A DNA stretch of 62,070 nucleotides. Source: an uncultured bacterium (GTDB lineage: Bacteria > Omnitrophota > Omnitrophia > Omnitrophales > Aquincolibacteriaceae). This document shows positions 15,073 to 61,385 of this stretch, piece by piece; positions within the stretch are counted from its first letter, which is position 1; each line of letters opens with the position of its first letter. Location: assembly GCA_964508905.1 (NCBI GenBank), contig CAZDVO010000008.1, positions 1 to 62,070 on the forward strand, written 5' to 3'. A program made the translations under genes and the position numbers. The notes under the pieces were generated by a model that searched no databases, was not told where the DNA came from, and saw only the letters and a program-made list of their open reading frames with translations.

Positions 15073-15127
15073 AGGATCCGGGTTCCCGTTGATCCGTTCA
15101 AAGGCCTTCCGAAGCAGTTAAAACCGC

Positions 15128-15177
15128 TTTAAGGTTCGTGACCGTTTGGGTATACTACCCACCAAATTTATTAGGAG
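15128..15177 (+). promoter_or_regulatory. Sigma70-type promoter and RBS of mutS
   Basis: TTTAAG (15128-15133), 17-nt spacer, TATACT (15151-15156); AGGAG at 15173-15177, 6 nt before the TTG start. Confidence 0.55.
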
Positions 15178-15183
15178 CCACCC

Positions 15184-42803: not shown

Positions 42804-42854
42804 AATGCCCGCCATTCTCTTCAGTATTCTTCTCGATCTTTAACGGAGGCAATC

Positions 42855-43247
42855 ATGAATTTCCCTGAGACGTTACGTTATACCAAAACCCATGAATGGA
42901 TCGTCGCGACCGGCGCCAAGGCGAAGGTGGGCGTGACCGAATACGCGCAAAAAGAGATCTCGGATGTGGTGTTCGTCGAGTTGCCGAAGGCGGGGCAGGC
43001 TGTCCAGCAGGCCAAGACGGCGGCGGTTGTGGAATCCGTGAAGGCCGCGTTCGATATTTACGCTCCCGTCTCCGGAAAGATCTCGGACGCCAATAAGGCG
43101 CTCGAATCGAATCCCGCGCTGATCAATCAGAGCCCTTATGCCGATGGCTGGCTTTTCGAGATCGAACTCTCGAACCCTTCGGAGATCAACACCCTCTTGA
43201 CCCCGGCGCAGTATGCGGACATGATCGCTCAAGCGCCGAAGCACTGA
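42855..43247 (+). CDS. gcvH: Glycine cleavage system H protein
   Basis: YTKTHEW, VESVKAA (lipoyl Lys) and NQSPYADGW motifs; GGAGG RBS. Confidence 0.97.
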   Translation: MNFPETLRYTKTHEWIVATGAKAKVGVTEYAQKEISDVVFVELPKAGQAVQQAKTAAVVESVKAAFDIYAPVSGKISDANKALESNPALINQSPYADGWLFEIELSNPSEINTLLTPAQYADMIAQAPKH

Positions 43248-43261
43248 TCTGAAAGAACCTC

Positions 43262-46092: not shown

Positions 46093-46781
46093 ACTGGAGG
46101 CTGTTGCCGACGATCAGTGCGCCGATGCCGCTCCAAATGGCGCTTGATGAGACCCTGTTCCTAGCCCACAAACAAATCCCCCAGGAAGCCCAGCTGCGTT
46201 TTTACGTTTCACAAGGGCCCTGGATCAGTGTGGGGTATTCCTTTTGTGGCGACGAAGAACTTTCAAAGTCGGAGCTGGTGCGCCAGAATCCCGGGGTGCC
46301 TCTCTGCCGGCGCGTGACGGGCGGAGGATGCGTGCTCCACGGGGACGATCTGATCTTTTCGCTTGTGGCGCACTATGACGTTGAGCCGATGCGTACCGCG
46401 TTGGGTGCTGTGAAGGCGAGTTACGCCAAGATCCACGAAGCGGTTCGTGTGGGGCTTCAGTCGTGTGGCCTTGATCCGAGGTTCTATCAAGCCGAAGAGG
46501 GGCTTCCCAAAGGAAGCGACTGTTTTGATTTTCCCGTCGAAAGCGACCTTTCCTGGAGAGGCGTTAAGATCGCCGGAGGGGCTCAGAAACGTTCCGAGGG
46601 AGTGTTGCTGCACCATGAATCGATCGCGCTGCCGAAGGGTGTTGGAAGGGAACAGCTGATCGCGGCGATAACTCGCGGTATGGAAACGGTTTTCGGTATA
46701 ACCTTTGCCAAGACGGATCTTGATCCTGAAATTTATTTCCAAGCGGCAAATAAAGGACTACAGCCGATAGCCTATAGCTGA
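46089..46781 (+). CDS. Lipoate-protein ligase / octanoyltransferase (LipM/LplA-like)
   Basis: QMALDE, RRVTGGGCVLH, KIAGGAQKR motifs; follows the gcv genes. Confidence 0.88.
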   Translation: MNWRLLPTISAPMPLQMALDETLFLAHKQIPQEAQLRFYVSQGPWISVGYSFCGDEELSKSELVRQNPGVPLCRRVTGGGCVLHGDDLIFSLVAHYDVEPMRTALGAVKASYAKIHEAVRVGLQSCGLDPRFYQAEEGLPKGSDCFDFPVESDLSWRGVKIAGGAQKRSEGVLLHHESIALPKGVGREQLIAAITRGMETVFGITFAKTDLDPEIYFQAANKGLQPIAYS

Positions 46782-46838
46782 TAGCTAAAGCGGAAGCTGT
46801 GATTTTTTTCGCTAGAGGCTATTAGCCATGAGCTTTAG
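46758..46838. repeat. Heptamer-arm palindrome, family A (NNATAGC / GCTATNN)
   Basis: Left arm CTACAGC CGATAGC CTATAGC TGATAGC (46758-46785); right arm GCTAGAG GCTATTA GCCATGA GCTTTAG (46811-46838). Confidence 0.7.
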
Positions 46839-46850
46839 TCTGGTGAAACC

Positions 46851-47225
46851 ATGGAAGAATCCGGTAATTATCTTAAAAAGCTCAGCGACCTTGTCGCACG
46901 GGACCCGAGATATAAGCTTGAGGCCTATACATTCGTACTCGCGGCGCTTCACGACACCGTGACGAAACTGGAGAAACCCCGGCACGTCACGGGCCAGGAA
47001 TTGGCCTGGGGGATGCGCCGCTACGCGCTCGATCAATTCGGTCCCATGGCGAAAACCGTTCTCCAGCACTGGGGGATCCGCCAGACCCTGGATCTGGGAA
47101 AGATCGTCTTTGCCCTGATCGACGTGAAGCTGTTGAGCAAGCAGGATCAGGACAAGCTTGAGGATTTTGATAAGGTCTACGAATTTGAAAAATCTTTCTC
47201 TGAATACACGATCAGTGATGAATAA
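46851..47225 (+). CDS. Minf_1886-family (Planctomycete/Verrucomicrobia-restricted) conserved hypothetical protein
   Basis: DPRY..EAY.FV..AL, RHVTGQEL, FGPMA.TVL.HWGI and DLGKIVF.L motifs. Confidence 0.85.
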   Translation: MEESGNYLKKLSDLVARDPRYKLEAYTFVLAALHDTVTKLEKPRHVTGQELAWGMRRYALDQFGPMAKTVLQHWGIRQTLDLGKIVFALIDVKLLSKQDQDKLEDFDKVYEFEKSFSEYTISDE

Positions 47226-47229
47226 ATCG

Positions 47230-47291
47230 GGCAATGCTCAACGGTCAACGCGCAACGAAGCGCTCATTTGCGTTGTGCGTTGCGCGTTGCG
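47230..47291. repeat. Heptamer-arm palindrome, family B (NNCAACG / CGTTGNN)
   Basis: Left arm GGCAATG CTCAACG GTCAACG CGCAACG (47230-47257); right arm CATTTG CGTTGTG CGTTGCG CGTTGCG (47265-47291). Confidence 0.75.
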
Positions 47292-47306
47292 CTTGGAGTG
47301 AGAAAT

Positions 47307-49454
47307 ATGGCTCAAGACCTTCTCGCCGGCCTGAACCCGGCACAAAAGGAAGCCGTGACCTGGTCCCCGGTCCGTCCGTTGCTGATCCTGGCCGGCGCGG
47401 GGAGTGGCAAGACGCGCATCCTCACGCACCGGATCGCGTGGCTGATCGAACACGGAGTGCCCGCTTTTAACATCCTCGGGGTCACCTTCACCAATAAGGC
47501 CGCAGCCGAAATGCGGAACCGTATTGAGCGGCTCGTTTCACAGCGCGTCTGGGTGAGCACCTTCCACTCCACGTGTCTTCGTATCTTGCGCCAGGATGGT
47601 CCCGCGATGGATCTCGACAGGAATTTCATTATCTACGACGAGTACGACCAGCTCCAGGTCATCAAGGAATGTATCGCGGAGCTCAAATTGAGCGAGAAGG
47701 ATGTTAACCCCAAGGCGGTTCGGGAAGAGATCCAGAGGTCGAAAGATTTTCTGATCATGCCGGACCAGTATGCCGCCAAGGCGATGGAGCTTTTTCAGGA
47801 TCGCGTCGGAAAAGTCTATAAGCTGTATGAGAGTAAGATGCTGCGGCTTAAGGCTTGCGACTTTGGCGATCTGATCATGAAGACCGTACTTCTTTTTGAC
47901 CGGCATCCCGAGGTTCTGAGATCATGGCAGGATCGCTTTCAGCATGTCCTGATCGACGAATACCAGGACACGAACCACGCTCAATACCGGCTTGTGAAGT
48001 GCCTGGCCGCGGCCCGTCGCCAGATCACCGTGGTCGGCGACCCGGACCAGTCGATCTATGCCTGGCGCGGGGCCGATATCAAGAATATCCTGAACTTTGA
48101 GGCGGATTATCCCGACGCCGGGGCGATTCGCATGGAGCAGAACTACCGGTCGACGCCGGTGATCCTGAATGCGGCCAATCATCTGATCAAGAATAATCAA
48201 ATGCGTCGTCCCAAGGCCCTTTGGACCGAACAAAAGGGCGGGGCGAAGATCGAGCTCTACAATGCCGAAGACGAGATCTCTGAGGCGAAGTATGTGGTCG
48301 GGACCATCTTGAAGAATAGGGCTATGGGAAGGACTTTCGCCGAGCAGGTCGTTTTTTACAGGGTTCACGCGCAGTCGCGCGTGATGGAAGAGGAACTGAT
48401 GCGTTCGAATATCCCGTACAAGATCGTGGGCGGGACGCGTTTTTATGACCGCAAGGAGATCAAGGACATTATCGCGTACCTAAGGATCGTGGCCTACCCG
48501 CACGATGAGGTGAGCCTGAAGCGTGTCATCAATGTGCCGCCGCGAGGGATCGGCAAGAAAGCGCTCGAGACGCTTGATGGCGCAACGCGAAAAAGCCAGG
48601 ATGACGGAGGGCGGATGGCGGATGACGTAAAAGTCGAAGCTCCATCCTCCAGCCTCCATCCTCCACCCGGAACGTGGGATTCTGTGCTGTCCAATGTCGA
48701 GACGATCGAGGGGCTCACGCCGCGCGTCAAAAAGAGCCTTTCTGCGTTCTACGCCTGGCTGACGAAGCTTCGCCGGAAACAGCATGAAATGACGATTCAC
48801 GAGATCCTTGAAAGGATCCTGGAAGATACCGGTTACGTGACGGCGCTTGAGTCGGAGCGGACGCCCGAGGCGCAGGCCCGGCTTGAGAATATCGAGGAAT
48901 TCTACAGCGTGATCGAGAATTTTAATGAAAAGCTGGATGGAGGATGGAGGATGGAGGATGGCGATAAGCCAGGGACTGCGTCCTCCGCCCTCCACCCTCC
49001 GCCATCCGTTCTTATGGCGTTCCTGGATTCGATCGAGCTGGTGACCGATCTGGATGCGTGGGACCAGGGAACGAACGTGCTGACACTGATGACGCTCCAC
49101 ACCGCCAAAGGTTTGGAGTTCCCGATCGTTTATATGGTGGGGTTGGAAGAGGGGATCTTCCCGCATGTGAATTCCTTCGCAGGTTCTTCTGATGAGATCG
49201 AGGAAGAGCGGCGTCTGGCTTATGTGGGCATCACGCGGGCTCGCGAACGGCTCCATTTTTCCTACGCGACCGAACGGCGCATGTATGGCGCCACACATCA
49301 TAATCTTCCGTCCCGGTTCTTGACGGAGATCCCGTCCAACCTTTTGGACGCGCGTGTGTCCTTTTCCCGCAACAGTTTTCGCGATGAAGATGAGAACCAG
49401 GACCGCTACGGCTCCGTTCACGATCCCGATCCTCTCATCGAATTCGACGACTGA
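47307..49454 (+). CDS. pcrA: SF1 DNA helicase PcrA/UvrD (start ATG 47307)
   Basis: LNPAQ, AGAGSGKT, TFTNKAA, DEYQDTN, VGDPDQSIY, EQNYRS, MTLHTAKGLEF and EERRLAYVGITRA motifs; GGAG RBS at 47295. Confidence 0.96.
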   Translation: MAQDLLAGLNPAQKEAVTWSPVRPLLILAGAGSGKTRILTHRIAWLIEHGVPAFNILGVTFTNKAAAEMRNRIERLVSQRVWVSTFHSTCLRILRQDGPAMDLDRNFIIYDEYDQLQVIKECIAELKLSEKDVNPKAVREEIQRSKDFLIMPDQYAAKAMELFQDRVGKVYKLYESKMLRLKACDFGDLIMKTVLLFDRHPEVLRSWQDRFQHVLIDEYQDTNHAQYRLVKCLAAARRQITVVGDPDQSIYAWRGADIKNILNFEADYPDAGAIRMEQNYRSTPVILNAANHLIKNNQMRRPKALWTEQKGGAKIELYNAEDEISEAKYVVGTILKNRAMGRTFAEQVVFYRVHAQSRVMEEELMRSNIPYKIVGGTRFYDRKEIKDIIAYLRIVAYPHDEVSLKRVINVPPRGIGKKALETLDGATRKSQDDGGRMADDVKVEAPSSSLHPPPGTWDSVLSNVETIEGLTPRVKKSLSAFYAWLTKLRRKQHEMTIHEILERILEDTGYVTALESERTPEAQARLENIEEFYSVIENFNEKLDGGWRMEDGDKPGTASSALHPPPSVLMAFLDSIELVTDLDAWDQGTNVLTLMTLHTAKGLEFPIVYMVGLEEGIFPHVNSFAGSSDEIEEERRLAYVGITRARERLHFSYATERRMYGATHHNLPSRFLTEIPSNLLDARVSFSRNSFRDEDENQDRYGSVHDPDPLIEFDD
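48599..48668 (+). repeat. Heptamer-arm palindrome, family C (GGATGGA / TCCATCC), in frame inside pcrA
   Basis: GGATGAC GGAGGGC GGATGGC GGATGAC, 14-nt spacer, TCCATCC TCCAGCC TCCATCC TCCACCC. Confidence 0.8.
48935..49007 (+). repeat. Heptamer-arm palindrome, family C, second in-frame copy inside pcrA
   Basis: GGATGGA x3 GGATGGC (48935-48962), spacer, TCCTCCGCCCTCCACCCTCCGCCATCC (48981-49007). Confidence 0.82.
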
Positions 49455-49711: not shown

Positions 49712-52700
49712 ATGACAAACACAGCTAAAAAAATCATAAGCTTGGTGGTGCTCGTCTGCTTTGCGATGACGCAAACGGTGTCCGCAAATCCCGGGGCGAG
49801 TATTGAGATCGCGACGCGTTATGAAACGCCCTCGTTCCTCCAGATCGATATCCCGGCAGAACTCGCGACGCTTGACGGGCTTTTTGAAGCGCCTCCGCGC
49901 CCTGATCCGCGTCTGGTGCTTCATGTTCAGAACGCGCACGCGAATTACGGCGCGCAGATGAAGATCAAAGAGCTGCTCCAATACCTGCACAAGACGTATG
50001 GTTTCAAAACGATCTTCGTCGAAGGCGCTTCCGAAGACCTGAATCCCGATTACCTCCGCATGTTCCCGGACAGGGAACGGAACATGAAACTCGCCGACTT
50101 TCTCATGCAACAGGGGGAATTGACGGGCGCGGAACTTTTCATCCTGGAGCAGGATGGCGGAGGGCGGAGGGCGGAGGGCGCAAAAAATCAGGATGACCGG
50201 GGGGAGAAAGCTGATGGCGTATATGCCGAGACCCCATCCTCCATCCTCCATCCTCTATCCGAGCCCAGTGTTCGGGCTCACGGGATCGAAAATGCGGAGC
50301 TCTATCGCGAGAACTACGACGCGCTCAAAAAAGTTTTCGGTTCGGGAAAGACCGTTACGCGTTATCTCGGAGGCTATGAGTCGCGGCTCGATGGCTTGGC
50401 CTCCAAAGTTTTTTCGCCGGAACTCCGTAAACTCCTGGGCGATTGGAAAAAATTCGAAAAAGGACAGCGCGAATTCATGCCCTATGTTCACGCGCTCACG
50501 GGGAATGCCAAAAAGATCCTGGGCGTTGACCTTGAGAGTTTGCTCGCGCAGGTCGAATGGCCGCAGATCTCGCGTCTTTTGCAGCTTCAGGTGATGGAAA
50601 AGGAACTTCAGACCGAGAAGGCTCTCGCTGAGAAAGATAAGCTGATCACGTTCCTGACGGCGAAACGGGTGACGCCGGAGCTGCTGGCGGCCATCAAGGA
50701 TTTTCAGGGGCAGCGGGTGAGCGTGCTCCGCGGGAAGTCGGATGCCGTTCCGGCCGGCCTGCAACCCCGGGACCTAATGGAAAAACTGGTCCTTGAAGCC
50801 GGCCCGAAGGGATTCCGCTTTCAGGATTATCCGGCATTTAGTATCTACGCGGGGTATCTCATCCTCAAGAACGAACTTGATCCGAAGCGGCTTTTTGAGG
50901 AGATCCGCACTGTCTTTGCCCGTATGTTGGATACCCTAGCCAAGACGCCTCGCCAGCGGGAACTTCTTGCGATCTATCGTGACGAAGAACTTGTTCGTAA
51001 ATTGCTCAACCTTGAACTGCCGCGCCGGGAATGGCGCGAGGCGGTGGCGAAACAGCAGGAGTTGGGAATGGATGTGATGGTCGAGCGGCTGAAGACGATC
51101 GGCGCACTCGTTAGCAAAGAATCCAATCTGCCGCTTTCCAGTTTTGAGACGAAAAAAGTGAGCGAGGCGTTCCGCCAGGAAGTTATGGGGATCCAAGCCG
51201 CCGCGTTCGGGTTCTACGATGCCGCACGGCGTCGTGAAGATGTGTTCTACCAGAAGATCGAGGAAGTGATGACCCGCAACGCGGAGTCGAAGGCCGTGCT
51301 CGTCACCGGCGGTTTTCACACGGACGGCATCACCGATCTTCTTCGTGAGCATCAGGTGAGCTATGGGATCCTCACCCCGCGCCTTCTCGAAAAATCCGAC
51401 GAGAATCTCTATCGCTCCGTCATGTTGCAGAACAAACAAAGCACGTTTGAACTGTCTTATCTGGAGGCTGTTTCGCGATTGCAGGGATATCTCGCCCAAG
51501 GGGGGCAAGTCGGGGAGGTGGAGGTGGTGGCTAGTTTGGAGGCCGTGCTTCGAGCGATCGGTCACGCCGGCGATTTGGGGAATATTGCGGACGCCATCAA
51601 GATCTTCAATGAGTCCTCTTACGCGATCAATGGGAAAATCCAGATCGATCCGAATCCGATCAGCAATGATGAAAAGGGCCGTCCCGTCTACCAAGTCCTC
51701 CATCGGTCGGAAGCGAGACGTGATGATCTCCACGGTGTAGCGATGCCCTGGTATTCCCACGCGGTTGAGACGGGCATGCGTCTTTCCGGTAATCTTTTTT
51801 TTGATCGGGGTGTGGGGATGATGAATGATCTTTTAAGACGAACGGATCTGACGCCGGAGATCCTGGAACGGGCTTTTTGGGGGTGGCATCAGGTCATGGA
51901 TGTGGCTCAAGGACAGAAAGATATTTATCGTGTTCAACCGGAAGCGATTCAGCAGCTTTTTGCGAAAGTCCTGTTCGATGCATCCCAGCCGGTGACTCGT
52001 GAAAATGTGTATGAGAAAGTGGCGGAGCTTTACTATGAATTGCACCGGATGCAGCCTTTTGTTGAAGGCAACCACCGTGCGATAAGCCTGCTCGTGAACT
52101 TTGTCTTTCTGAAGGTTGGGGTTCCGGCCTTTTATCTGAACCAGCGGAATACTCCGAATTACGACGAGATGCGAAAGCTGATCCGTCTGCCAGTCCAGAC
52201 ACGACGGAATGCTGACTGGGGGAAGGTGTCGAGCGATCGTTTAAGAGCGGCATTCAAAAATGCCGGGATGGAACTTCCCGTGAGGCCGGTTCGAGAGACG
52301 TCGGCTTTGAACGATGATAATCTCAAGAAGGTCATAGCCTCCTTCTTTATGATCGAAGCTGCAACGATCCGCTCGGAATCGCGGACGGGGGAGGTCTTAA
52401 CGGAGTCGCGTGTGCAATCCGCCGCGGACTCGTTGGAACTCCAAATAGAGGCGGTTCGTCGCGAAAACGTAGGTAAGCCGACTTGGATGAGAGCCCCCAA
52501 TAGTAGCGTCACGAATCTCAGCGAGCGTCATTGGCTTTTAGTGCGCACCCCTCAATTTAAGAGCTTTTTCGGTGACTGGGAGCATGACCCCCAAAATGCT
52601 TCCAAGGTTTTAGATGAAAATGGAGAGCCGCTCTTAGTCTGGCACGGCTCGCAAGCGGCGGCGGCATTCGATGCGTTTGACCCCGAAGCAAAACGCATTA

Positions 52701-55700
52701 CAGATATCGGAGATCTCGGATGGGGCAGTTATTTTACGGGCTCTCGCGAAACGGCGGAAGTTTTTACCTGGCGGCTCAACGCCACACAAGGACCGTTGGT
52801 GAGTGCGTTTTTAAACATTCGAAATCCTGCGAGCGTTGAGACGGTCCAGAAGAATGGCGGGAATGGTAAGAGCCGTACTCCAGAAGCGGCGAAGTCGCTG
52901 GTCCAGACACTTACAAATTTGGGACATGACGGCGCCTTTCGCACACCCTTGGAAGTGGTGTTCGGCAAGCCAGTTACCGAATGGGTGGTCTATGACAATG
53001 CCAATATTTTTATGGTCTCACCCGATGTTCTTTCAGAAGAGACTCCCACTATCGACCGTCAGAATGTTCCCGCTCGTGTGGAGATGCGGACGATCGAGCA
53101 GACAAAGTTATCCCTCGATGGAGGGACGCTGCAGGTTCCTTCCATTGCTCCTGGGGCCGGGATTCAGATGGTCGTCGGGAAAGATGCTGAGTTCCAGAAA
53201 GCCCGCTTGGAATCGCGGCAAAAGACGGTTTCGAAGCGTGAGAAGCTCCTGCAAACGGTGGCGGTTGCGGGTTTCTTTGCGTTCTGGGCTGGTTTCCCCG
53301 ATCTTTCCCTGGCGCGTGAGAAGACGGCCTATGTTCCCTATGTCGCCCGACAAGAAAAAGCTCCATCCGAACCCTCTCGCGTGGCCCCGGGGGTAGAGCT
53401 GTTGGATTTCACGAAGTTGTGGGCCGCTGTCATGTCACAAGGTGTTTTGCGAGGGGTTACCGAGGAAGATCTTAGACAGTCGATTGACTATTCAAACCGT
53501 CCAGATATCCGTGCGCAGGTTCAAGCCGCTTATGCGATGCTTATTCGTGATGGATTGCTGCCGGAAGGGACCAAGTTTCCTGTGGTTTTACTCAAAGGGA
53601 TTGATGAATCCCTTTTTAGCAAGCTTGGCATATCGGCGGATAGCTTTGCTGTTGCCCCGAGGGGAAGTGGCGTTGTCTTTGTCCCCCGGGTTGCTTGGGA
53701 TCGACTGGATCCCGATGTGTCAAAAGCAGCCTGGCTCTTGGTGAAGGCCGGGCATGAGGCGCGGCACCATATGGATCTTCTTAATGATCCGAACATCTCT
53801 ACGCTGCGTACGGAAGCCAACGCGTACGCGGTTACGGCTCGCTCGATGGAGTTGGCGGGTTATCCGGAGGAGCAATTGATCTTGCAGAGACAGGTGGCAT
53901 CGGCGTTCAAAGTCTTGGCGGATAGCGAAGAGGCGGTCTCGCGGATCTTTGGAAAAGGAACCCTTTTTCGAAATATTAATTACGGAAATATAGCCGTCGA
54001 CGGAAGTGGCTTTGTCCGTGTTGAGCTTTTGGATGAGGTTAACGGAAAGAAAATAATGATCGGCGTCGATCTTAACGCTCCGTTGGGCAAGCAGATATTC
54101 GAGCTTGTTGCAAAACCGGCAGAACAATCATCAAATGCAGAGACTCAGACTCATGCGGTCTATGCCTCTCGAGAGAGTCTTGGAGGAGTGCTTACTCCGC
54201 TGACGGATATTCCCTCAAGTATGGTTTTGGCCGTTCTGGGGCTTATGGCCGCCGTTCCTCGTCGGGGGACGCGCGCCGGTCAAACAAGTGCCGCGCCCTC
54301 TAAATCGCAGGAGACGAAAAAGAAGTTGGCGGCCGTGCGATCCGAGTCGAGGGCCCAGGCTGCTGCGGAGGGGGAGGAGCTTACGTTGGATCAGGTCCGC
54401 AAGGAGTTTGCGGCGACCTTCAGGCACGAATTCGCGGATGATTTGACGGTACTTGCCGGTTTGCCCCAGTTGTTAATTCAGCCGGAGCTTTTTCCCGAGG
54501 CCCGTCGCACAAGCATAGATCTTGGGCGCAAGTCTCTTAAAGCTCTTCGCGCACAGGTGGAGCGACTCCGCCAGGAACAGGGTGAGAATTTTGTGCGAGC
54601 GCCTAACCATGGGGCTACCGACGGGTCCTTTTTGCTGGTGGATTCCCACACGCAAAGTTATGGGAACAACTATCATCAGCTGAGCCAACAGTGGCACCAG
54701 TATGCCCGCATGGAAGTTCTAGCTCTTGTGAACCATAAGCAGTTAGCGGCCAATTTAGAGATGGTTATTGATAAAGCCGAGGAGTGGTTGAATAAGGTGG
54801 CGGCGAAGCTTGCTCAAGGTGAAAAACTTGCCGATGCTGATCTGAAGGATGGGGACGATTTCGGGGAAACGTTCCTTTATGTACTTGATCAGCTGGGGCG
54901 AGGGGAATTCGAGTCCTGGGTCGGCGAGCCCCAGAGTGAGGGCGGTTCGCTGCAGGTGAACGAGGTCGGGACGCCTGCGCTACCGATGGTGTCGGAAAAC
55001 CATGGCTACTGGGTTGATGCGATCACGAATCTGGCGAGGCAGTACGGGCGGACTTTGAGAAGGCGGACTTTGAGCGAGGAGCGTCTGACGGTCGTGGAGA
55101 TCCCGGGCAGGGACCGTTATTTACCTGGAGCGTTCCATTTGTTGAATGCCGAAGGAAAGGTCATCGGTGTCAGCCTAGTGGAAGATATCATTTTCCGGGC
55201 CGTTGATCCTAAAACGGGTGAGCCGATTGATGACGAGGTGATCAAACGAGCTGATGGTGAATCCATGAGAGATGAGCTGAATGCCACCTGGGCGCTCGAG
55301 GAAGCCTGGGCGCTCAAGGAAGCCGACAAATATGGGTATCTGCGCGCGTGGGAAGCGGGTGTGATGGCGAATGGACAAGGTTTTTGGGCGCGGCTCAAAG
55401 GCCCGAAAAAAGGCCAAGATCTTAGCCAGGCAAATCCACGGCTTTCGGTCATAGATCTTTTTAAAGGCTTAGCTGGCGCGGGCGAGAGGTTTGTCCAACT
55501 ACATCAAGCAGGCCTTATCCATGGAGATATTAAGCCCGGGAACATTCTTCTTGGGGAAGATCCGAAAGGAGCCCTAGACGTTTCAAATTCATACGTGATC
55601 GATCTCACAGGGGTTCAGCAATTGGGGGCTAACCCGGACGCGGAAACAGTGTTGGGAACGACGTGGATGAACCCCCTTATAAAAATGGAGGGACGTCCGG

Positions 55701-57460
55701 TGTTGCTGCAAGGGTGGTTGCGGACCCAAGAGGCTGATAACTTTCAATTTGCTATGACGATCGTGAGTCTCCTTCACCAGAAAGCGCGTCTTCCCGGGGC
55801 GAATGCCCTTTCGCCGGACGAGGCTGCTCGTTTGGAGACGAAATACCTTGGACGGATCTTTACCCGCTTTCCCGGCCAGAGTGCTCGCCGTATGTTCATT
55901 CAAAATAAAGACATGGAAAATTTTGCCTATGATATTTATTTTCAACATCCCGAGATATTTGGCGTCAGACCGATGTCTGAGATCCCCACGATGGCCCAAC
56001 TGACCCAAATGCTCAAGGAAGATCTTGCCGCGATGGAGGCCTCGGCGGCGGGGCGCTCCGAATCCCGTGCGGAAACGCGGACGGAGGGAACGACGGCGGA
56101 GGATTTTGACGAATTTGTTCAGGGGTATTGGCGGGAGAATGATTTGGGCAGTGAGGAGGATCGCTTGGCTGCCGCGAAGTTCTATTATTCGAGCGATTCG
56201 GGCAGGGCGATTCAAAAGGGAGGCATCACGGCTTCGATGTTTTCTGTATTTATAAGGGCCATGGGATTCAGAGGAAAGGACAGCGCAGCCAAGACTTTCG
56301 CAGCCATGAGTGCGCTTCGGAAACTTCGGCCTCTCTATCCTGAGGTGAAATTGTCGACAGCCATCGACATGCTTTCCAAGGGCGAATTTGATTTTAATAA
56401 ACTTGGGAATAGTGGCGAGGTTGCGCTTGCAAGCTTTCTGCCAGCGGTCAGGACTATTTTTTTGAGGAACGGGATCAAGGCGCAGGTTCTGAAAGTTGGT
56501 GTTGATGCGGCGGCCAAGGCAGCAGAAACCAAGACTGCCGCTGAGCTGGAGGCGGAATTTGTTGAAGCGATGCAGGCTCGAATGCCGGCGGCGGAGACGG
56601 CGATCGATCTCAGAAGTGTTCTAAAGGAACTTTCGTCTGAGGAACAAAAGTCTCTGGAATTCAAAGTGGCTGAGGTGAGGAACCGCTTGGGATTGGCAGA
56701 AGTATCGGATGAGGTGGTTCGTGTGGCGCTTTTGGTGGGTGGGATCCTGGATCTGAGCAAAGCGGATTTGCCTGAAGCTAAACGGCGGATGATGCTTCTG
56801 GCGGCCACGATCGGCGGGCAGGCGACGGTGGCTTTACGAGATGCCTTCAAGAAAGCTTATGAAGGTCAGAATATTCAATTGCCTGTGAGCGATGCGGTGG
56901 GGTTGGTGGTGGATATCCTTGATGCGATGCCCTCGTCCAAGAAGGTCGAGGCGGTGAAGGGGATGCTGGCCTTGAATCCGAACGCGCATTTTGCCTGGAT
57001 CGTTCCTGCCGGGGTGGATGTGTCGGAAACGGTTCAGAAGATTACCGAATGGGGGAACCGTAATGATGTGAAAGTTGAGGGGCGCCTTCTTGTGAGCGGG
57101 GTCGGAGCCAGTCTTGCGAACAGCATCAACAGCGTGAAAAAGAGGATCAAACGTATCTACGCGTTTGTTGTTATCGGGCGCTCGGAAGATCTGGCTGACC
57201 TGAATGTGGAACAGGCGGAACTGATTGAGCGGGGGAACGAGATCCCTCAAGACGTTGCGGATGTGGCGGGGATAGTGGTGTCCGTCGAGCGGTCCCAGGA
57301 ACTTGTCTATGGGGGCGAGAAATTTGGTGAGAAAACCGCTCAGGCCATCAATGCGAAAAAAGGGAAACGTTTTTCTTTCAACCTTAACGGACTTCTCAAT
57401 ATTGCCAAGAGCCTCGCAGCCCAACTTCAGGGCCTCCTGAGCCTCGAAAAATCCGCTTAG
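49712..57460 (+). CDS. Giant (2582 aa) secreted multidomain protein: TIKI/ChaN-like N-terminal domain, Fic, polyvalent-type ART, HExxH peptidase, Ser/Thr kinase and an unknown C-terminal module
   Basis: Single open frame; Sec-type signal (KKIISLVVLVCFAMTQTVSA); motifs QNAH/VEG/TGGFH, QPFVEGNHR, VLDENGEPLLVWHG/GSYFT, HEARH..E and HGDIKPGN. Confidence 0.9.
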   Translation: MTNTAKKIISLVVLVCFAMTQTVSANPGASIEIATRYETPSFLQIDIPAELATLDGLFEAPPRPDPRLVLHVQNAHANYGAQMKIKELLQYLHKTYGFKTIFVEGASEDLNPDYLRMFPDRERNMKLADFLMQQGELTGAELFILEQDGGGRRAEGAKNQDDRGEKADGVYAETPSSILHPLSEPSVRAHGIENAELYRENYDALKKVFGSGKTVTRYLGGYESRLDGLASKVFSPELRKLLGDWKKFEKGQREFMPYVHALTGNAKKILGVDLESLLAQVEWPQISRLLQLQVMEKELQTEKALAEKDKLITFLTAKRVTPELLAAIKDFQGQRVSVLRGKSDAVPAGLQPRDLMEKLVLEAGPKGFRFQDYPAFSIYAGYLILKNELDPKRLFEEIRTVFARMLDTLAKTPRQRELLAIYRDEELVRKLLNLELPRREWREAVAKQQELGMDVMVERLKTIGALVSKESNLPLSSFETKKVSEAFRQEVMGIQAAAFGFYDAARRREDVFYQKIEEVMTRNAESKAVLVTGGFHTDGITDLLREHQVSYGILTPRLLEKSDENLYRSVMLQNKQSTFELSYLEAVSRLQGYLAQGGQVGEVEVVASLEAVLRAIGHAGDLGNIADAIKIFNESSYAINGKIQIDPNPISNDEKGRPVYQVLHRSEARRDDLHGVAMPWYSHAVETGMRLSGNLFFDRGVGMMNDLLRRTDLTPEILERAFWGWHQVMDVAQGQKDIYRVQPEAIQQLFAKVLFDASQPVTRENVYEKVAELYYELHRMQPFVEGNHRAISLLVNFVFLKVGVPAFYLNQRNTPNYDEMRKLIRLPVQTRRNADWGKVSSDRLRAAFKNAGMELPVRPVRETSALNDDNLKKVIASFFMIEAATIRSESRTGEVLTESRVQSAADSLELQIEAVRRENVGKPTWMRAPNSSVTNLSERHWLLVRTPQFKSFFGDWEHDPQNASKVLDENGEPLLVWHGSQAAAAFDAFDPEAKRITDIGDLGWGSYFTGSRETAEVFTWRLNATQGPLVSAFLNIRNPASVETVQKNGGNGKSRTPEAAKSLVQTLTNLGHDGAFRTPLEVVFGKPVTEWVVYDNANIFMVSPDVLSEETPTIDRQNVPARVEMRTIEQTKLSLDGGTLQVPSIAPGAGIQMVVGKDAEFQKARLESRQKTVSKREKLLQTVAVAGFFAFWAGFPDLSLAREKTAYVPYVARQEKAPSEPSRVAPGVELLDFTKLWAAVMSQGVLRGVTEEDLRQSIDYSNRPDIRAQVQAAYAMLIRDGLLPEGTKFPVVLLKGIDESLFSKLGISADSFAVAPRGSGVVFVPRVAWDRLDPDVSKAAWLLVKAGHEARHHMDLLNDPNISTLRTEANAYAVTARSMELAGYPEEQLILQRQVASAFKVLADSEEAVSRIFGKGTLFRNINYGNIAVDGSGFVRVELLDEVNGKKIMIGVDLNAPLGKQIFELVAKPAEQSSNAETQTHAVYASRESLGGVLTPLTDIPSSMVLAVLGLMAAVPRRGTRAGQTSAAPSKSQETKKKLAAVRSESRAQAAAEGEELTLDQVRKEFAATFRHEFADDLTVLAGLPQLLIQPELFPEARRTSIDLGRKSLKALRAQVERLRQEQGENFVRAPNHGATDGSFLLVDSHTQSYGNNYHQLSQQWHQYARMEVLALVNHKQLAANLEMVIDKAEEWLNKVAAKLAQGEKLADADLKDGDDFGETFLYVLDQLGRGEFESWVGEPQSEGGSLQVNEVGTPALPMVSENHGYWVDAITNLARQYGRTLRRRTLSEERLTVVEIPGRDRYLPGAFHLLNAEGKVIGVSLVEDIIFRAVDPKTGEPIDDEVIKRADGESMRDELNATWALEEAWALKEADKYGYLRAWEAGVMANGQGFWARLKGPKKGQDLSQANPRLSVIDLFKGLAGAGERFVQLHQAGLIHGDIKPGNILLGEDPKGALDVSNSYVIDLTGVQQLGANPDAETVLGTTWMNPLIKMEGRPVLLQGWLRTQEADNFQFAMTIVSLLHQKARLPGANALSPDEAARLETKYLGRIFTRFPGQSARRMFIQNKDMENFAYDIYFQHPEIFGVRPMSEIPTMAQLTQMLKEDLAAMEASAAGRSESRAETRTEGTTAEDFDEFVQGYWRENDLGSEEDRLAAAKFYYSSDSGRAIQKGGITASMFSVFIRAMGFRGKDSAAKTFAAMSALRKLRPLYPEVKLSTAIDMLSKGEFDFNKLGNSGEVALASFLPAVRTIFLRNGIKAQVLKVGVDAAAKAAETKTAAELEAEFVEAMQARMPAAETAIDLRSVLKELSSEEQKSLEFKVAEVRNRLGLAEVSDEVVRVALLVGGILDLSKADLPEAKRRMMLLAATIGGQATVALRDAFKKAYEGQNIQLPVSDAVGLVVDILDAMPSSKKVEAVKGMLALNPNAHFAWIVPAGVDVSETVQKITEWGNRNDVKVEGRLLVSGVGASLANSINSVKKRIKRIYAFVVIGRSEDLADLNVEQAELIERGNEIPQDVADVAGIVVSVERSQELVYGGEKFGEKTAQAINAKKGKRFSFNLNGLLNIAKSLAAQLQGLLSLEKSA
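50152..50260 (+). repeat. Heptamer-arm palindrome, family C, in frame inside the giant-protein gene
   Basis: GGATGGC GGAGGGC x3 (50152-50179), 54-nt spacer, CCATCCT x3 CTATCC (50234-50260). Confidence 0.82.
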
Positions 57461-57516: not shown

Positions 57517-58311
57517 ATGAAGATCCTCAAAGAGCGCGTGTTCAGTCCCGGAGAAAGTCTTTTTTATTCCACCGTCTTGTGGGCCGCGACGGTTTTCCTC
57601 ACTCTTTTTTCCGCTTGTCTTGATCTTTTCGTGGTGTATCCGATCTCGCTGATCGTGGATCGTAAGGCTCGGAGGCTTTTGCACACGGTTTCCGCCGATT
57701 GGGGAAGAACCATTATTCGGTGGAGTTCGATCTGGCGGCTTGTGGTGACGGGGAAGGAGCATCTTGAAAAGGGGAAGCACTACATCGTGATCGCCAATCA
57801 TCAGAGCATGCTGGATATCCTCGCCGTTTGCGCCGGGGTCCCCATTAATTTTAAGTTTCTCGCCAAGCGCGAGCTCTTTCAGATCCCGTTCATGGGATGG
57901 GCCATGGCCGCTGCCGGTTACATTCCCGTGGACCGCGCGAGCCATAAAAGCGGGCGCGAAGCGATGCACCGCATTACCCGGGTTCTGGATAAAGGGGTGA
58001 GCGTGCTCCTTTTCCCGGAGGGGACGCGAAGCCCCGACGGTAAGATCCATGCCTTTAAGATGGGCGCTTTCAAATTGGCACGCGATAATAAAGTGGAGAT
58101 CCTTCCGGTGGTGGTGGACGGAACGGGACAGGCGCTTCCCAAGAGATCCTGGCTGATCAAAAAGAAAAGCGCGTTCATCGTTTCGATCGGGAAGCCGGTC
58201 TCGCTCGATGATTTTGCTGATGCCTCGATGGAAGAGGCGAAAGAGAAGATTCGCCACGAAATGATCGGGCGATTGGAACATATCCGCCACGGCAAGTGTG
58301 AGGCCGCGTGA
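57517..58311 (+). CDS. plsC: 1-acyl-sn-glycerol-3-phosphate acyltransferase
   Basis: ANHQSMLD, KFLAKREL, FPEGTRS, FKMGAF and ILPVVV motifs. Confidence 0.9.
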   Translation: MKILKERVFSPGESLFYSTVLWAATVFLTLFSACLDLFVVYPISLIVDRKARRLLHTVSADWGRTIIRWSSIWRLVVTGKEHLEKGKHYIVIANHQSMLDILAVCAGVPINFKFLAKRELFQIPFMGWAMAAAGYIPVDRASHKSGREAMHRITRVLDKGVSVLLFPEGTRSPDGKIHAFKMGAFKLARDNKVEILPVVVDGTGQALPKRSWLIKKKSAFIVSIGKPVSLDDFADASMEEAKEKIRHEMIGRLEHIRHGKCEAA

Positions 58312-59045
58312 AGATACTGACATTAAATACGTGGCAAGAGCGCGGGCCCTGGCGCGAACGTTGGGAACTCATCCTGAAGGGCCTCCGAGAGTACGATGCT
58401 GATATCGTTGCTTTTCAGGAAGTGTTCAATATGGACTGGGCTGAAGAAGTCCACCGCCGAAGCGGGTACCCCTACCTGGCTGTGAGCGGGGAACACTCAG
58501 GGCTTATTTTTCTTTCAAAATTCAAACCGGTCGAGCAGGAATGCTTGGTGATGGAGACGCGGTCGCCGACCGAGGATTATCATCGGTATGCTTTTTATCT
58601 CCGGGTGGATGTCGAGGGTCAGGACGTCGCGCTGTTTAATACGCATCTTTCATGGAAGGCGGGCGAGAATGAAGTGCGGATGAAGCAGACGCTTGAACTG
58701 GAAGCTTTTGCTACCCGGAAAGCCTCCACGCTTCCGGTGGCATTGATGGGAGACTTGAACGGCGCGTCGAATACGCCGCCGGTCGTGTATCTCCGGGAAA
58801 TACGGAAATGGATCGACACGTTCTGGGTGAAGAATCCCGGCGTGCCTGGGTTGACCTGGGACTATCGGAATCCCTACGCGGAAGCAGAGCGGGATAAAAT
58901 GGCGGAACGGCGCATCGATTATATTTTTATTCGAGAGAGGACGGGCCCCTTGGAGGCGATCAGGTCTTCGCGCGTTGTTTTTGACCAGCCCTCCGCTGCG
59001 GGGGTCTTTCCGTCGGATCATTTTGGGGTGCTTACCGAATTTTAA
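58308..59045 (+). CDS. Endonuclease/exonuclease/phosphatase-family protein
   Basis: LTLNTW, DIVAFQEV, NTHLS, MGDLN, RIDYIF and SDHFGV motifs. Confidence 0.92.
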   Translation: MKILTLNTWQERGPWRERWELILKGLREYDADIVAFQEVFNMDWAEEVHRRSGYPYLAVSGEHSGLIFLSKFKPVEQECLVMETRSPTEDYHRYAFYLRVDVEGQDVALFNTHLSWKAGENEVRMKQTLELEAFATRKASTLPVALMGDLNGASNTPPVVYLREIRKWIDTFWVKNPGVPGLTWDYRNPYAEAERDKMAERRIDYIFIRERTGPLEAIRSSRVVFDQPSAAGVFPSDHFGVLTEF

Positions 59046-59048
59046 TAG

Positions 59049-59115
59049 CGCAACGCACAACGCGCAAAGTTTAACGCAACGCTTTTCCGTCGAGCGTTGC
59101 CCGTTGCGCATTGAG
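59049..59115. repeat. Heptamer-arm palindrome, family B, second copy
   Basis: Left arm CGCAACG CACAACG CGCAAAG TTTAACG (59049-59076); right arm CGTCGAG CGTTGCC CGTTGCG CATTGAG (59088-59115). Confidence 0.75.
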
Positions 59116-59131
59116 CTGGAAAATGGATAAC

Positions 59132-60259
59132 ATGGTGCAACAAACCCGAAAAATGGATCAGGCGGTTGACTATCAAAAGATCCGCCGCCGGCTTTCGCTC
59201 TTTCAGCTGTTTTTGACGCCGGCGCTGCTAGGCATTCTGCTCGCGAGCGGGTGGACGTTCGGAATGCGCCAGAATGCGGCGCTTCTGGCCGGGCCGAATG
59301 AATGGGCGATCGTGGCCGTCTATTTTGTTCTCTTCTCTCTTTTTTTTCTTATCTTCGATCTGCCGCTTTCTTTTTATTCCGGGTTCATGCTGGAGCATCG
59401 ATTCGGGCTCTCGAATCAGAACTTCGGACAGTGGCTAGGCGATCTCGCCAAGAAAACGCTGCTATCCTTTGGCTTTTCGCTCGTTCTTCTTGAATTTCTT
59501 TATCTGATCATCCGGCACTGCCCCGGGACCTGGTGGCTCTGGGCCTGGGTGGCCTACGCCTTCGTAAGTTATGTGATCGGGAAAGTCTTTCCGGTGCTGA
59601 TCGTTCCGCTTTTCTATAAGTATGGGAAGTTGGAAGATAAGGAACTCGAGACTAAGGTCCTGGCTCTTGCCGCCCGGTACGGGATGCCGGTCGAGAATGT
59701 TTATGCGCTCAATCTGAGCAAAACGACCAAGAAGGCGAACGCGGCCTTTATGGGGATCGGTAGAACGAAACGGGTGGTCTTAAGCGACACGCTTATTCAG
59801 AATTTTTCACACGCGGAGGTGGAAGTCGTGGTGGCGCATGAGCTCGGGCATTACAAACACCACGATGTGTGGCGTTTGCTGGCCTTCGGGCTTGCCGCAT
59901 CGCTTGTTGCTTTCGCAGCCGGGTTCTGGGGCATGGAGGCTTCGGCCCGAAGCGTGTCGCTCGATTCGACCGCCGATGTGGCGGGACTGCCGCTTTTTTT
60001 TCTGATCTTTTATGCCGTGAACCTGATCCTTATGCCCATGATGAACGGTTATTCCCGGCGGCGGGAGCGGGCCGCGGATCGTTTTGCCCTCAAGGCGTTG
60101 CCTACTCCGGACGTCTTTATCTCATGTATGAAGAAGCTTGGGACGCAGAATCTCGCGGATCCCGAGCCCCCCGGGTGGTACGAATGGTTCTTTTACGATC
60201 ATCCTTCGATCCGAAAGCGTGTCGCGATGGCGGAAGCACAGGCCGCCGTCTTGAAATGA
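59132..60259 (+). CDS. M48-family (Ste24-like) membrane zinc metallopeptidase; start uncertain (59123, 59132 or 59153)
   Basis: SKTTKKANAAFMG, VVAHELGH, RERAADRFA and YDHPSI..R motifs; several TM helices. Confidence 0.93.
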   Translation: MVQQTRKMDQAVDYQKIRRRLSLFQLFLTPALLGILLASGWTFGMRQNAALLAGPNEWAIVAVYFVLFSLFFLIFDLPLSFYSGFMLEHRFGLSNQNFGQWLGDLAKKTLLSFGFSLVLLEFLYLIIRHCPGTWWLWAWVAYAFVSYVIGKVFPVLIVPLFYKYGKLEDKELETKVLALAARYGMPVENVYALNLSKTTKKANAAFMGIGRTKRVVLSDTLIQNFSHAEVEVVVAHELGHYKHHDVWRLLAFGLAASLVAFAAGFWGMEASARSVSLDSTADVAGLPLFFLIFYAVNLILMPMMNGYSRRRERAADRFALKALPTPDVFISCMKKLGTQNLADPEPPGWYEWFFYDHPSIRKRVAMAEAQAAVLK

Positions 60260-60266
60260 GAGGCTG

Positions 60267-61385
60267 ATGAACATGAAAATGATGATGCGTTGCGTGATGG
60301 CCGTGATCTTGGCGGGGGCTTTTTACGGGAGCGCGCAGGCCGAGAACGATCCGGATGACCGCGGCAAGGATTCTGTGGAGCGTCGCCAGAAGATCGAGAT
60401 CGAGCAATTCTTTTCGGAGAAGGGCGGCGCCATGCCGATGACGCCGATGGCGATCAGTTTCTACAATGATGGCGTGAAGTTCTTTGAAAAGAACGAGTTC
60501 GATCTCGCGAGGGAGGCGCTAAACCAGTCGCTGGCGTTGGAGCCCCGGAATGCCATGGCGCTGGAACTGCTGGGGGAGATCGAGAACCTGCAACAGAATT
60601 TTGAGAAGGCGGAATATTATTACAAACAAAGTTATCTCATTCATTCTTCCGTCCGGTTGCGCCAGAAGATCGAAAAGATCCAGAAGGAGCATGTCGTCGA
60701 AAAGGACCTCGACACCTATGATGAGGAGCATTTCATCATCAAGTACCGGAAAGGGGAGCAGGGTTATGAGGGCTATTTGCTCCGGGACCTTCTTCGGGAT
60801 GCCTATCGCCAGATCTCCCAGGATTTCAGTTATTACTTTAATCACAAGACGACCGTGCTTTTTTATAGCGGCACGGAGTTCCACGATGTGACCGGCCAGG
60901 CGGCTTGGGTCGGGGGGCTTTATGACGGCAAGATCCGTTTACCGCCGTATCGGCAGGGTTTTAACGAGCTGTCCCTGCGCGCCGCCACGACGCACGAAAT
61001 GACGCACGCGTTCGTGACCGCGCTGAGCGGTGGGCGGGCCCCGGCCTGGATCCAGGAAGGGTTGGCCCAATATGAGCAGAATCAGGTGGAAACGGTGAAC
61101 ACGCTTGTGTTCGATACGGCCGTTCGGATCAACACACTCCTGCCGCTCGATCGCCTGCTATCTGAAGATCTGAAAATGGATAAGATGGATCCTCTCGAAG
61201 TGTCCCTTTTTTATCAGCAGGCCTATCGGCTGGTGCGATACATGGTGGAACGCTATCAGATGTACCGCGTCAAGGAGATGCTCGTGAAGTTCAAGGAAGG
61301 GAAGCCCGCTGAGCAGGCGATCGAGGAATCTCTGGGCATTTCCTTCGCGCAGCTCGAGAAGGAATGGCTCGCCTCCCTCAAATGA
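60267..61385 (+). CDS. Exported TPR protein with a peptidase MA-like domain
   Basis: Signal peptide; TPR-like helices; THEMTHA and PAWIQEGLAQY motifs. Confidence 0.85.
   Translation: MNMKMMMRCVMAVILAGAFYGSAQAENDPDDRGKDSVERRQKIEIEQFFSEKGGAMPMTPMAISFYNDGVKFFEKNEFDLAREALNQSLALEPRNAMALELLGEIENLQQNFEKAEYYYKQSYLIHSSVRLRQKIEKIQKEHVVEKDLDTYDEEHFIIKYRKGEQGYEGYLLRDLLRDAYRQISQDFSYYFNHKTTVLFYSGTEFHDVTGQAAWVGGLYDGKIRLPPYRQGFNELSLRAATTHEMTHAFVTALSGGRAPAWIQEGLAQYEQNQVETVNTLVFDTAVRINTLLPLDRLLSEDLKMDKMDPLEVSLFYQQAYRLVRYMVERYQMYRVKEMLVKFKEGKPAEQAIEESLGISFAQLEKEWLASLK

Follow-up and report, generated by a model that had tools for sequence, protein, structure and literature searches.

Giant multi-enzyme proteins are a hallmark of Omnitrophota, and the question of whether they function as one chain or as separate fragments is raised by a gene of an uncultured member of this phylum (Omnitrophia; Omnitrophales; Aquincolibacteriaceae). 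The gene lies on contig CAZDVO010000008.1 of assembly GCA_964508905.1, positions 1 to 62,070 of which, read on the forward strand, form the stretch of 62,070 nucleotides analysed here and called the window. The open reading frame (ORF) at 49712..57460 (+ strand, as are all its features given below) specifies a protein of 2,582 amino acids (aa). This protein belongs to a family with a fixed chassis, i.e. a signal peptide, an N-terminal domain of ~640 aa (N-domain) and a C-terminal domain of ~290 aa (C-domain), which holds from 0 to more than 20 unrelated cassettes. A five-residue motif, R-[S/A/P]-E-x-R, marks the joints between these exchangeable cassettes. A cassette-type architecture with a peptide junction motif had been proposed for the window protein in a preliminary description made from its sequence, and we find it throughout the family.

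The preliminary description listed four RSExR peptides and one RVEMR peptide as dividing the protein. All were recovered at those positions and with those codons: RSEAR (51704..51718, aa 665-669), which comes after the last strand of the N-domain; RSESR (52370..52384, aa 887-891); RVEMR (53075..53089, aa 1122-1126); a further RSESR (54338..54352, aa 1543-1547); and RSESRAETR (56054..56080), a double motif in which RSESR at aa 2115 overlaps RAETR at aa 2119. We add RLESR (53204..53218, aa 1165-1169), which was absent from that list. RVEMR had been counted among the junction copies; it is present at aa 1122 but is not a canonical variant, position-2 Val being rare in the family, and RLESR is a second non-canonical variant. 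Because the RSExR pattern was picked post hoc from one protein in which the three residues are fairly common (R 6.6%, S 5.9%, E 8.1%), we have to weigh first whether it arises by chance or from the composition of a protein rich in Arg, Glu and Ser. The four exact copies compare with 0.054 expected from composition; none of 20,000 residue shuffles of the protein reached four copies and two reached three. No motif was found in any real gene elsewhere in the 62-kb window. Independent proteins were then used for replication: the excess is 25- to 80-fold, it is absent from neighbouring genes, and the placement of the motif is non-random, which together make chance scarcely credible.

A search with the full-length protein returned about 70 Omnitrophota proteins of 1,500-4,400 aa, aligned over their first ~650 aa only (22-27% coverage); the Pfam domains downstream are wholly different from those of the window protein. 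Proteins P0001-P0070 contain 326 RSExR for about 4 expected, with 2-14 per protein, and the proteins matched by their ADP-ribosyltransferase (ART) domain only (P0071-P0093) have almost none. In 115 further representatives we counted 564 R[SAP]ExR for 22 expected. Family members without RSExR carry RAExR or RPExR. In 79 loci, ORFs of at least 1,200 aa hold 1.48 motifs per 1,000 aa and neighbouring genes about 0; in shorter ORFs, nearly every motif belongs to a truncated fragment of a giant gene. Where the N-domain is missing, large Omnitrophota ORFs have zero or one motif.

The distribution of the motif relative to domain boundaries in homologues, on which the preliminary description had made its proposal depend, is clearly non-random. 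None of the 78 motifs of nine proteins falls in a stretch recognised by Pfam (8.6 expected from random placement, P(0)=5e-5), and burial in folded cores was seen in none of the recognised domains. In family members, a REC domain (2222-2342) is bracketed by motifs at 2213 and 2350, an HD domain (3680-3817) by motifs at 3660 and 3841, and a methyltransferase (988-1155) by motifs at 942 and 1173. When non-orthologous members are compared by BLAST, 35% of the high-scoring segment pairs (HSPs) start at most 10 aa from a motif (7% at random), and 79 HSPs span a motif for 203 expected. The median spacing between motifs is 196 aa, and the sequence is less hydrophobic close to them (0.26 within +-10 aa, down from 0.33). 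Doubled motifs were found, and some linkers are Pro/Ser/Thr-rich (P/S/T-rich) with several copies. Pfam boundaries, composition and BLAST end-points thus suggest that the motif lies in short, hydrophilic, exposed linkers. Of 442 motifs, 41 have a transmembrane-like (TM-like) segment in the 40 aa that follow (12 of 442 at random), so that some cassettes look as if they carried their own signal or anchor.

The chassis is far more widespread than the first search indicated. A profile of the N-domain (alignment A1) retrieved 10,056 clusters at 50% identity with E<=1e-3, including 7,010 with E<=1e-30; in these 10,056 clusters the domain is invariably at residues ~1-600, in host proteins of 480 to 7,498 aa. 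In species-representative genomes 405 loci were confirmed, and every named one belongs to Omnitrophota; up to 4 paralogues per genome were present among the 79 loci retrieved. The C-domain was found with jackhmmer at the extreme C-terminus of 99 sequences. Among them are members of ~1,000 aa made up of just the N-domain and the C-domain, without motif, and the cassettes are therefore best described as insertions between two fixed domains. The N-terminal domain, presented in the preliminary description as one module among others, belongs to the invariant chassis, as do the last 292 aa. The domains found in homologues include TIM barrel, TPR, CMP kinase, NUDIX, HD, PRTase, HATPase and REC domains, methyltransferases, UDP-glucose dehydrogenase and PGM. 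Judging from these assignments, the payload of the family is far broader than toxins, many cassettes (REC, HATPase, PGM, UDP-glucose dehydrogenase, methyltransferases) being metabolic or signalling in appearance.

In the window protein the chassis starts with a Sec-type signal peptide or anchor (49712..49789, aa 1-26), MTNTAKKIISLVVLVCFAMTQTVSA followed by NP, with a basic n-region, a hydrophobic core and VSA-NP at its end. This hydrophobic segment, modelled as a helix (3-23) by AlphaFold2 (AF2), is kept in nearly all homologues, and we infer from it that the protein is exported. The N-domain follows (49790..51703, aa 27-664; alignment A1 and AF2 model). Between the N-domain and the C-domain, the catalytic signatures each fall in a separate motif interval, as had been described: Pfam and sequence inspection place Fic at aa 743-797, ART-PolyVal at 968-1054, HEARH at 1348 and kinase at 1913-1988. 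The NCBIfam scan of the whole protein returned nothing relevant.

Cassette 1 (51719..52369) had been given as a Fic module. The domain is Fic-like, by Pfam and by alignment to PDB entries, but its active site is degenerate: the Pfam Fic score is sub-threshold (22.5 bits for a cut-off of 24), and the site reads QPFVEGNHRAIS (52130-52170, aa about 807-820), i.e. QPFVEGNHR in place of HPFxEGNGR. With Gln for the catalytic His, a substitution also seen in the alignment to 3cuc/FICD, His for the second Gly and Ser for the last Arg, it departs from the Fic/AMPylase motif HPFx[D/E]GNGRxxR, and cassette 1 is probably no canonical AMPylase. Cassette 2 (52385..53074) is an ADP-ribosyltransferase of the ART-PolyVal type (PF18760, aa 968-1054, E 2.4e-11, above cut-off), homologous to the ART domains of P0071-P0088. 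Cassette 3 (53090..54337), which takes in a 38-aa spacer (1127-1164), carries HEARH at aa 1348; it has no match in Pfam or PDB, and has homologues in P0002, P0102 and P0005, where residues 732-979 lie between motifs at 697 and 991. Hydrophobic stretches occur near both its ends, at about aa 1180-1197 (by eye) and about aa 1497-1515 (scored), i.e. at 53204-53300 and 54200-54260. Cassette 4 (54353..56053) is a protein-kinase-like module: its Pkinase matches (aa 1913-1988) are weak, 16.7 bits for a cut-off of 31.7, and its catalytic loop HGDIKPGNILL (aa about 1930-1940) aligns through HGDIKPGN with the loop of OSR1/PknA in the PDB alignment. No counterpart of the Fic, ART and kinase cassettes was found among the family members compared. 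The C-terminal module of ~463 aa that had been described is really two elements, a 167-aa cassette 5 (56081..56581, aa 2124-2290), homologous to residues 1374-1522 of P0004, which begin at a motif (1365), and the conserved 292-aa C-domain (56582..57460 with the stop codon, aa 2291-2582, ending ...LEKSA). An effector role would suit this set of cassettes, i.e. the Fic domain that has lost its catalytic His, the ART, the membrane HExxH module and the kinase-like module.

The turnover of cassettes can be followed at the locus itself. The gene lies in the order gcvT-gcvPA-gcvPB-lplA-orf124-uvrD-[giant]-plsC-EEP-M48-MA/TPR (41706-49454 and 57517-61385 for the flanks), which is kept in 8-22 other loci: uvrD is upstream in up to 22, and the downstream genes are conserved in 8-12. 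Between uvrD and plsC the syntenic orthologues range from 918 to more than 4,000 aa; the chassis is common to them and almost none of the cassettes are. Module swapping between orthologues, which had been put forward as something to look for, is therefore seen at this locus. An origin in a mobile element or phage was considered and is ruled out by the conserved chromosomal synteny and by the viral data, where a single distant match was obtained in 2.9 million contigs. This sole N-domain relative (L090, 1828-3096, IMGVR_UViG_3300045144_000334) has 23% identity, and may be a misclassified cellular fragment.

At the DNA level, the rearrangements which survive start and stop at the motif. In pairs of motif copies within one gene, the DNA is identical over at least 45 nt to one side of the motif and diverges 0-4 nt beyond it to the other. 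Recent duplications within genes (L068, about 12500-18200; L026, about 12900-13900) comprise tandem cassettes, of 97 and 112 aa, that span exactly from motif to motif, and a P/S/T-rich linker unit of 54 aa (RSEAR...RRSEVH...RAEVR) with several motif copies, which is reused between different cassettes of one protein. With the same ~15 nt present at each joint, unequal recombination from one joint to another would duplicate, delete or swap whole cassettes in frame, and this would explain the quick turnover of the payload at a fixed locus.

The preliminary description held that the peptide is conserved and not the DNA, on the ground that codons differ between copies; this stands for Glu3 and Arg5, the codons of which are near background, and does not for Arg1 and Ser2, which are strongly biased among synonymous codons family-wide. 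In 276 RSExR copies from loci L001-L080, Arg1 is CGC/CGT in 85% of cases (background 40%) and AGR in 4% (background 25%); for Ser2, TCC makes up about 60% (background 22%) and AGY 5% (background 33%). Each genome has its own favoured codon at position 2: TCG in JAZDJU, TCC in JBDRCT, GCG in DAOPYQ and CCG in CAYQTU. Several causes were examined and ruled out: a codon-pair context effect (Arg-Ser dipeptides outside the motif are unbiased), avoidance of Shine-Dalgarno-like sequences (CGCTCGGAG is not depleted compared to CGCTCGGAA), and internal starts at position 4 (ATG/GTG; most copies have Ala/Ser/Thr there). A CCGY/GCGG stem closing an 8-nt loop could form through the biased synonymous sites (-1 C, +2 Y, +11 G, +14 G), and motif 27-mers fold at -6.38 kcal/mol compared to -5.41 for synonymous resamples (z = -8.8). 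The proposed stem pairs show no covariation (p=0.66 for -1/14, p=0.014 for 2/11), and only about 5% of the copies form the exact hairpin. With base preferences that fit, folding that is slightly better and covariation that is nil, the idea of an RNA or DNA hairpin leaves the bias unexplained.

Could a nucleic-acid signal then be primary? C-CGY-TCC-GAR-NNG-CGG (~16 nt) would act as a microhomology, a small hairpin, a recombinase site or an RNA-processing site through which cassettes are exchanged in frame, and RSExR would largely be its translated footprint, possibly alongside a function of the peptide. The Arg1/Ser2 bias confined to the motif, the genome-specific position-2 codon, the duplication break-points and the better folding all agree with such a signal. 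Set against them, Arg5 uses both codon families (67% CGN, 33% AGR), GAA and GAG encode Glu at similar frequencies, with no replacement by Asp, the constraint on position 4 concerns the type of residue (V/A/S/M/T), the flanks have no nucleotide signal, and the four RSExR copies of the window, with codons 1-2 at 51704-51709, 52370-52375, 54338-54343 and 56054-56059, show four different Arg1/Ser2 codon pairs; the lack of covariation and the rarity of the exact hairpin count here too, and 15 nt is below the length needed for RecA-type recombination. We consider a primary nucleic-acid signal distinctly unlikely.

The flanks of the peptide motif are unconserved (-1 is small, position 4 is V/A/S/M/T, +1 is G/E/A), as expected of a short linear motif. 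Within one genome, even divergent paralogues have the same residue at position 2: 17 of 17 copies in three genes of CAYQTU have Pro, and two genes of DAOPYQ have 12 Ala and 1 Ser. In a distant N-domain subclade (P0064, P0057, P0166, P0172-P0174, P0177, P0180, P0190, P0206) R-x-E-x-R is missing and [AG]-[ASQ]-S-L-G, hereafter SLG, is found in its place (41 A.SLG for 2 expected), the first copy coming directly after the N-domain at about aa 550-630. A position 2 that is uniform by lineage and a wholesale replacement by SLG form the pattern that a co-evolving reader, e.g. a protease, would give. The same variants bear on a co-translational event, in which a 2A-like skip of the peptide bond or a programmed pause would separate successive cassettes, or time their folding or membrane targeting, without any protease. 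Such an event would suit a very short motif present at every domain boundary, with a preference in its first two codons of the kind seen where tRNA identity matters. However, the position-2 codon varies by genome, the residue itself may be Ser, Ala or Pro, another clade has SLG, and nothing is conserved upstream, whereas arrest and skipping peptides need a longer upstream context. We know of no bacterial precedent for a 2A-like skip or its equivalent, and hold this explanation to be highly improbable.

If the reader is a protease, the N-domain is the part of the chassis to consider. In alignment A1, H76, Q82, E104, G105, E141, E193, Y198, R508, G533, G534 and H536 are invariant, and H71 nearly so. 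The AF2 model (predicted local distance difference test score, pLDDT, 80.5; predicted template modelling score, pTM, 0.75) consists of an alpha/beta core, with strands at 68-74, 100-103, 188-191, 527-533 and 550-556, and a helical insert of ~300 aa. H71, H76, E104, E141, E193, R508 and H536 are at strand ends in the model, H76, E104 and H536 coming after predicted strands 68-74, 100-103 and 527-533. TIKI-fold enzymes, among them Tiki and RRSP, two endopeptidases with sequence specificity, use two His and two Glu at the ends of the parallel core strands (PMC6254334). The TIKI/TraB/ChaN/EreA superfamily appears to have in common with the N-domain an alpha/beta core with His/Glu at strand ends and an Arg...G-x-x-His element ahead of the last core strands; the N-domain differs by its ~300-aa helical insert and by the additional invariant Q82, E141, E193 and Y198. 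The searches point the same way at low scores. A PDB profile search gave spurious matches only; Foldseek of the model gave E>1, with the erythromycin-esterase-fold proteins EreC and Bcr135 at the top probabilities (0.10-0.14); Pfam ChaN, of the Tiki superfamily, was matched by 3 of 23 N-domain members, the best hmmscan E of 0.015 being not significant. In hhalign comparisons with TraB/GumN (full length with E. coli YbaP; full length with A3, an alignment of YbaP and eight plasmid homologues; helical insert removed with A3), E values were 0.4, 0.04 and 0.018, not significant, with a probability of 1-3% over 40 columns only, and only the R...G-G-x-H element aligned. Four independent methods agree in direction, and we put membership of the TIKI superfamily at a little better than even. 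The N-domain is probably a hydrolase, possibly of the TIKI/TraB/ChaN/erythromycin-esterase fold.

The C-domain model (pLDDT 76.9) comprises a helical bundle and a Rossmann-like alpha/beta domain. A GTPase or protease function was considered for it and rejected, Foldseek giving only generic Rossmann/SRP-GTPase-like matches and the P-loop not being conserved in its alignment (A2). The last residue is an invariant Ala in A2 (...LEKSA, 57443-57457), and 137 of about 185 family sequences, from both motif clades, end in [A/S]-Ala, most of the remainder looking truncated. This [Ala/Ser]-Ala-COOH end is reminiscent of tails of the ssrA type, or of the ligands that tail-specific proteases or PDZ domains bind.

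From these elements we propose that the motif is the site of a sequence-specific endopeptidase, with the N-domain as the leading candidate enzyme, and we give this an even chance; the preliminary description had taken RSExR for a cleavage or translocation signal and the modules for effectors, readings that stay conjectural. The exported precursor would be cut at the motif, in the fashion of a polyprotein, into the N-domain, separate cassettes and the C-domain. The computational proxies for a processed polyprotein, i.e. junction position, linker character and lineage-specific variants, are all present, and on this basis thousands of Omnitrophota proteins look like bacterial polyproteins. Several points weigh against the proposal. 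Export, cleavage at the motif and the choice of protease are all inferences; the likeness of the N-domain to TIKI/TraB/EreA is below significance in every single method; N-domain columns tracking the S/A/P variant were sought and none was found; and the synonymous bias at Arg1/Ser2 would not be predicted for a purely peptide-level signal. Motif-less members retain the N-domain, so that processing at the motif would not be its sole role. ATP or NAD is required by many cassettes, and this speaks against a periplasmic activity, except in the case of delivery into another cell. A TM-like segment after about 10% of motifs makes an intact polytopic membrane protein conceivable.

The last point leads to an uncleaved, membrane-tethered multi-enzyme scaffold, in which R-x-E-x-R would be a structural or docking element or a site of Ser/Arg modification; for example, an extended strand could bind the N-domain, the C-domain or an envelope component through an Arg/Glu/Arg face. 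The i, i+2, i+4 spacing of the invariant residues suits one face of such a strand, and the TM-like segments, together with the internal hydrophobic segments of the window protein, fit a polytopic protein. No protease domain is shared by all members if the N-domain is left aside as a mere candidate, and a 2026 preprint predicts a signal peptide plus TM segments for most long Omnitrophota proteins without invoking processing (10.64898/2026.06.07.730766). A docking element, however, need not mark every boundary, be doubled, or vanish from members without cassettes; position 2 may be Ser, Ala or Pro, so that modification of Ser is not essential; and a swap to the unrelated SLG motif in another clade is typical of a changed protease specificity. 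A scaffold appears unlikely to us, if worth keeping in mind.

Peptide and DNA may also be read together, the proteins being true polyproteins with a dual-coded junction. A TIKI-like N-domain would cut the peptide, and the enzymes so freed, a set that differs by strain, would end up outside the cell or in a host; the underlying ~16 nt, CCGY TCC GAR NNG CGG, would serve as the site of in-frame cassette exchange, making the gene an "in-frame integron"; and reader and site would co-evolve in each genome, which would give the S, A and P variants and the SLG clade. We see only a slender chance that all of this holds together.

A few observations on the genes themselves are added here. In GCA_040767405.1 (L001, 1-21952, on a 1.78-Mb contig) giant genes occur in tandem, one with a product of at least 3,442 aa and 10 motifs, followed by P0010 with 11; truncated motif-bearing giant ORFs are also found upstream in L010, L032, L061, L064 and L079. 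In L053 (9986-21858), L036 (9977-21636), L057 (9875-21680) and L022 (27-4284) an ORF with the N-domain precedes a long motif-bearing ORF in a different frame, and in L053 and L022 the C-domain sits in the second ORF; these could be assembly frameshifts, pseudogenes or cases of programmed frameshifting.

Around the giant gene of the window, an M48 peptidase (59111-60259) and an MA-family/TPR peptidase (60267-61385) accompany the giant gene in 8-9 loci and could be processing enzymes acting in trans. There are no secretion genes among the neighbours. The slot between lplA and uvrD holds an ORF of 124 aa (46851-47225, +), which has no Pfam match; it is a real gene, since its position and sequence (52-74% identity) are kept in 16 other Omnitrophota loci. 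The region 1-41600 is an ordinary chromosomal context, entirely on the + strand, with cysS, metG, an OppA-type binding protein, mutS, mutL, a histidine kinase, a GAF-HD protein, murE and murF; no tRNA genes are present.

A five-residue motif that marks boundaries in more than 10,000 clusters is a testable handle on the question of cleavage: the motif shows where neo-termini are expected, which peptide suits a candidate protease, and where to split these proteins for modelling and annotation. The N-domain and the C-domain are two large domain families without a Pfam, NCBIfam or PDB match in the searches run, and the family is a clear case of fast in-frame module shuffling at a fixed chromosomal locus. 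Should cleavage be true, this would be to our knowledge the first large cellular polyprotein system, and it would offer a natural library of exchangeable cassettes with a compact, lineage-tunable processing site, of biotechnological interest.

Among the closest systems in the literature are the giant proteins of Omnitrophota themselves, which also combine a signal peptide and TM segments with many unrelated Pfam domains (West-Roberts et al. 2023, 10.1101/2023.11.21.568195; 2026, 10.64898/2026.06.07.730766). The two studies cover proteins of at least 10,000 aa. Cleavage after translation has been suspected for such proteins, and one of the studies states that the cleavage points are unknown; the junction motif, the chassis and RSExR/SLG are not described in them. 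A text search of the literature for the motif gave nothing relevant, and we found no description of an Omnitrophota cassette family with a junction motif, in agreement with the view of the preliminary description that the system was undescribed.

MARTX toxins (multifunctional autoprocessing RTX toxins of Vibrio and relatives), to which the window protein had been likened, are no more than an analogy, their defining domains being absent: neither RTX or HemolysinCabind-type matches, expected of glycine-rich repeats at both ends, nor Peptidase_C80, the inositol-phosphate-activated cysteine protease domain, were found in the window protein at Pfam E<=1, and its two ends are the N- and C-domains of the family. 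In MARTX toxins as in our family, conserved ends flank variable effector cassettes that are exchanged between strains by recombination, and the syntenic orthologues do carry strain-variable internal cassettes of this type. MARTX effectors are released by proteolysis of linkers, where for our family release would follow from the proposed cleavage; we know of no consensus in MARTX linkers that is as strict as RSExR. MARTX toxins use type I secretion, with adjacent rtxBDE-type genes and no N-terminal signal, in contrast to the conserved signal peptide of the window protein. The chassis domains are unrelated, the host is from a phylum of uncultivated environmental bacteria, and many of the cassettes do not look like toxins. 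A MARTX effector, RRSP, is a TIKI-fold endopeptidase (PMC6254334).

Polyvalent proteins of phages and conjugative elements combine 2-15 unrelated enzymatic domains and are believed to be processed (Iyer et al. 2017, PMC5512222). They share with the window protein several unrelated enzymatic domains, including ART-PolyVal; they are located on mobile elements, whereas our gene is at a conserved chromosomal uvrD-plsC locus in a housekeeping context, and its family is set apart by the signal peptide, the fixed chassis domains at both termini and the junction motif. Polymorphic toxin systems (Zhang et al. 2012, PMC3482391) also associate a conserved trafficking part with recombining cassette-like domains. 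They have one C-terminal toxin followed by an immunity gene, in contrast to multiple internal cassettes and a conserved C-terminus, and the genes downstream of ours are conserved and of housekeeping type, the first being a syntenic plsC-type acyltransferase. Viral polyproteins, cut by picornavirus 3C, potyvirus NIa or nidovirus 3CL, resemble the family in being single chains with a recurring, lineage-varying junction consensus. Our family is cellular, chromosomal and multi-paralogue, with a variable payload in place of a fixed proteome and with cleavage as a prediction; where the viral chain includes its own protease, the Omnitrophota chain includes a conserved enzyme-like domain that is a candidate for the same role.

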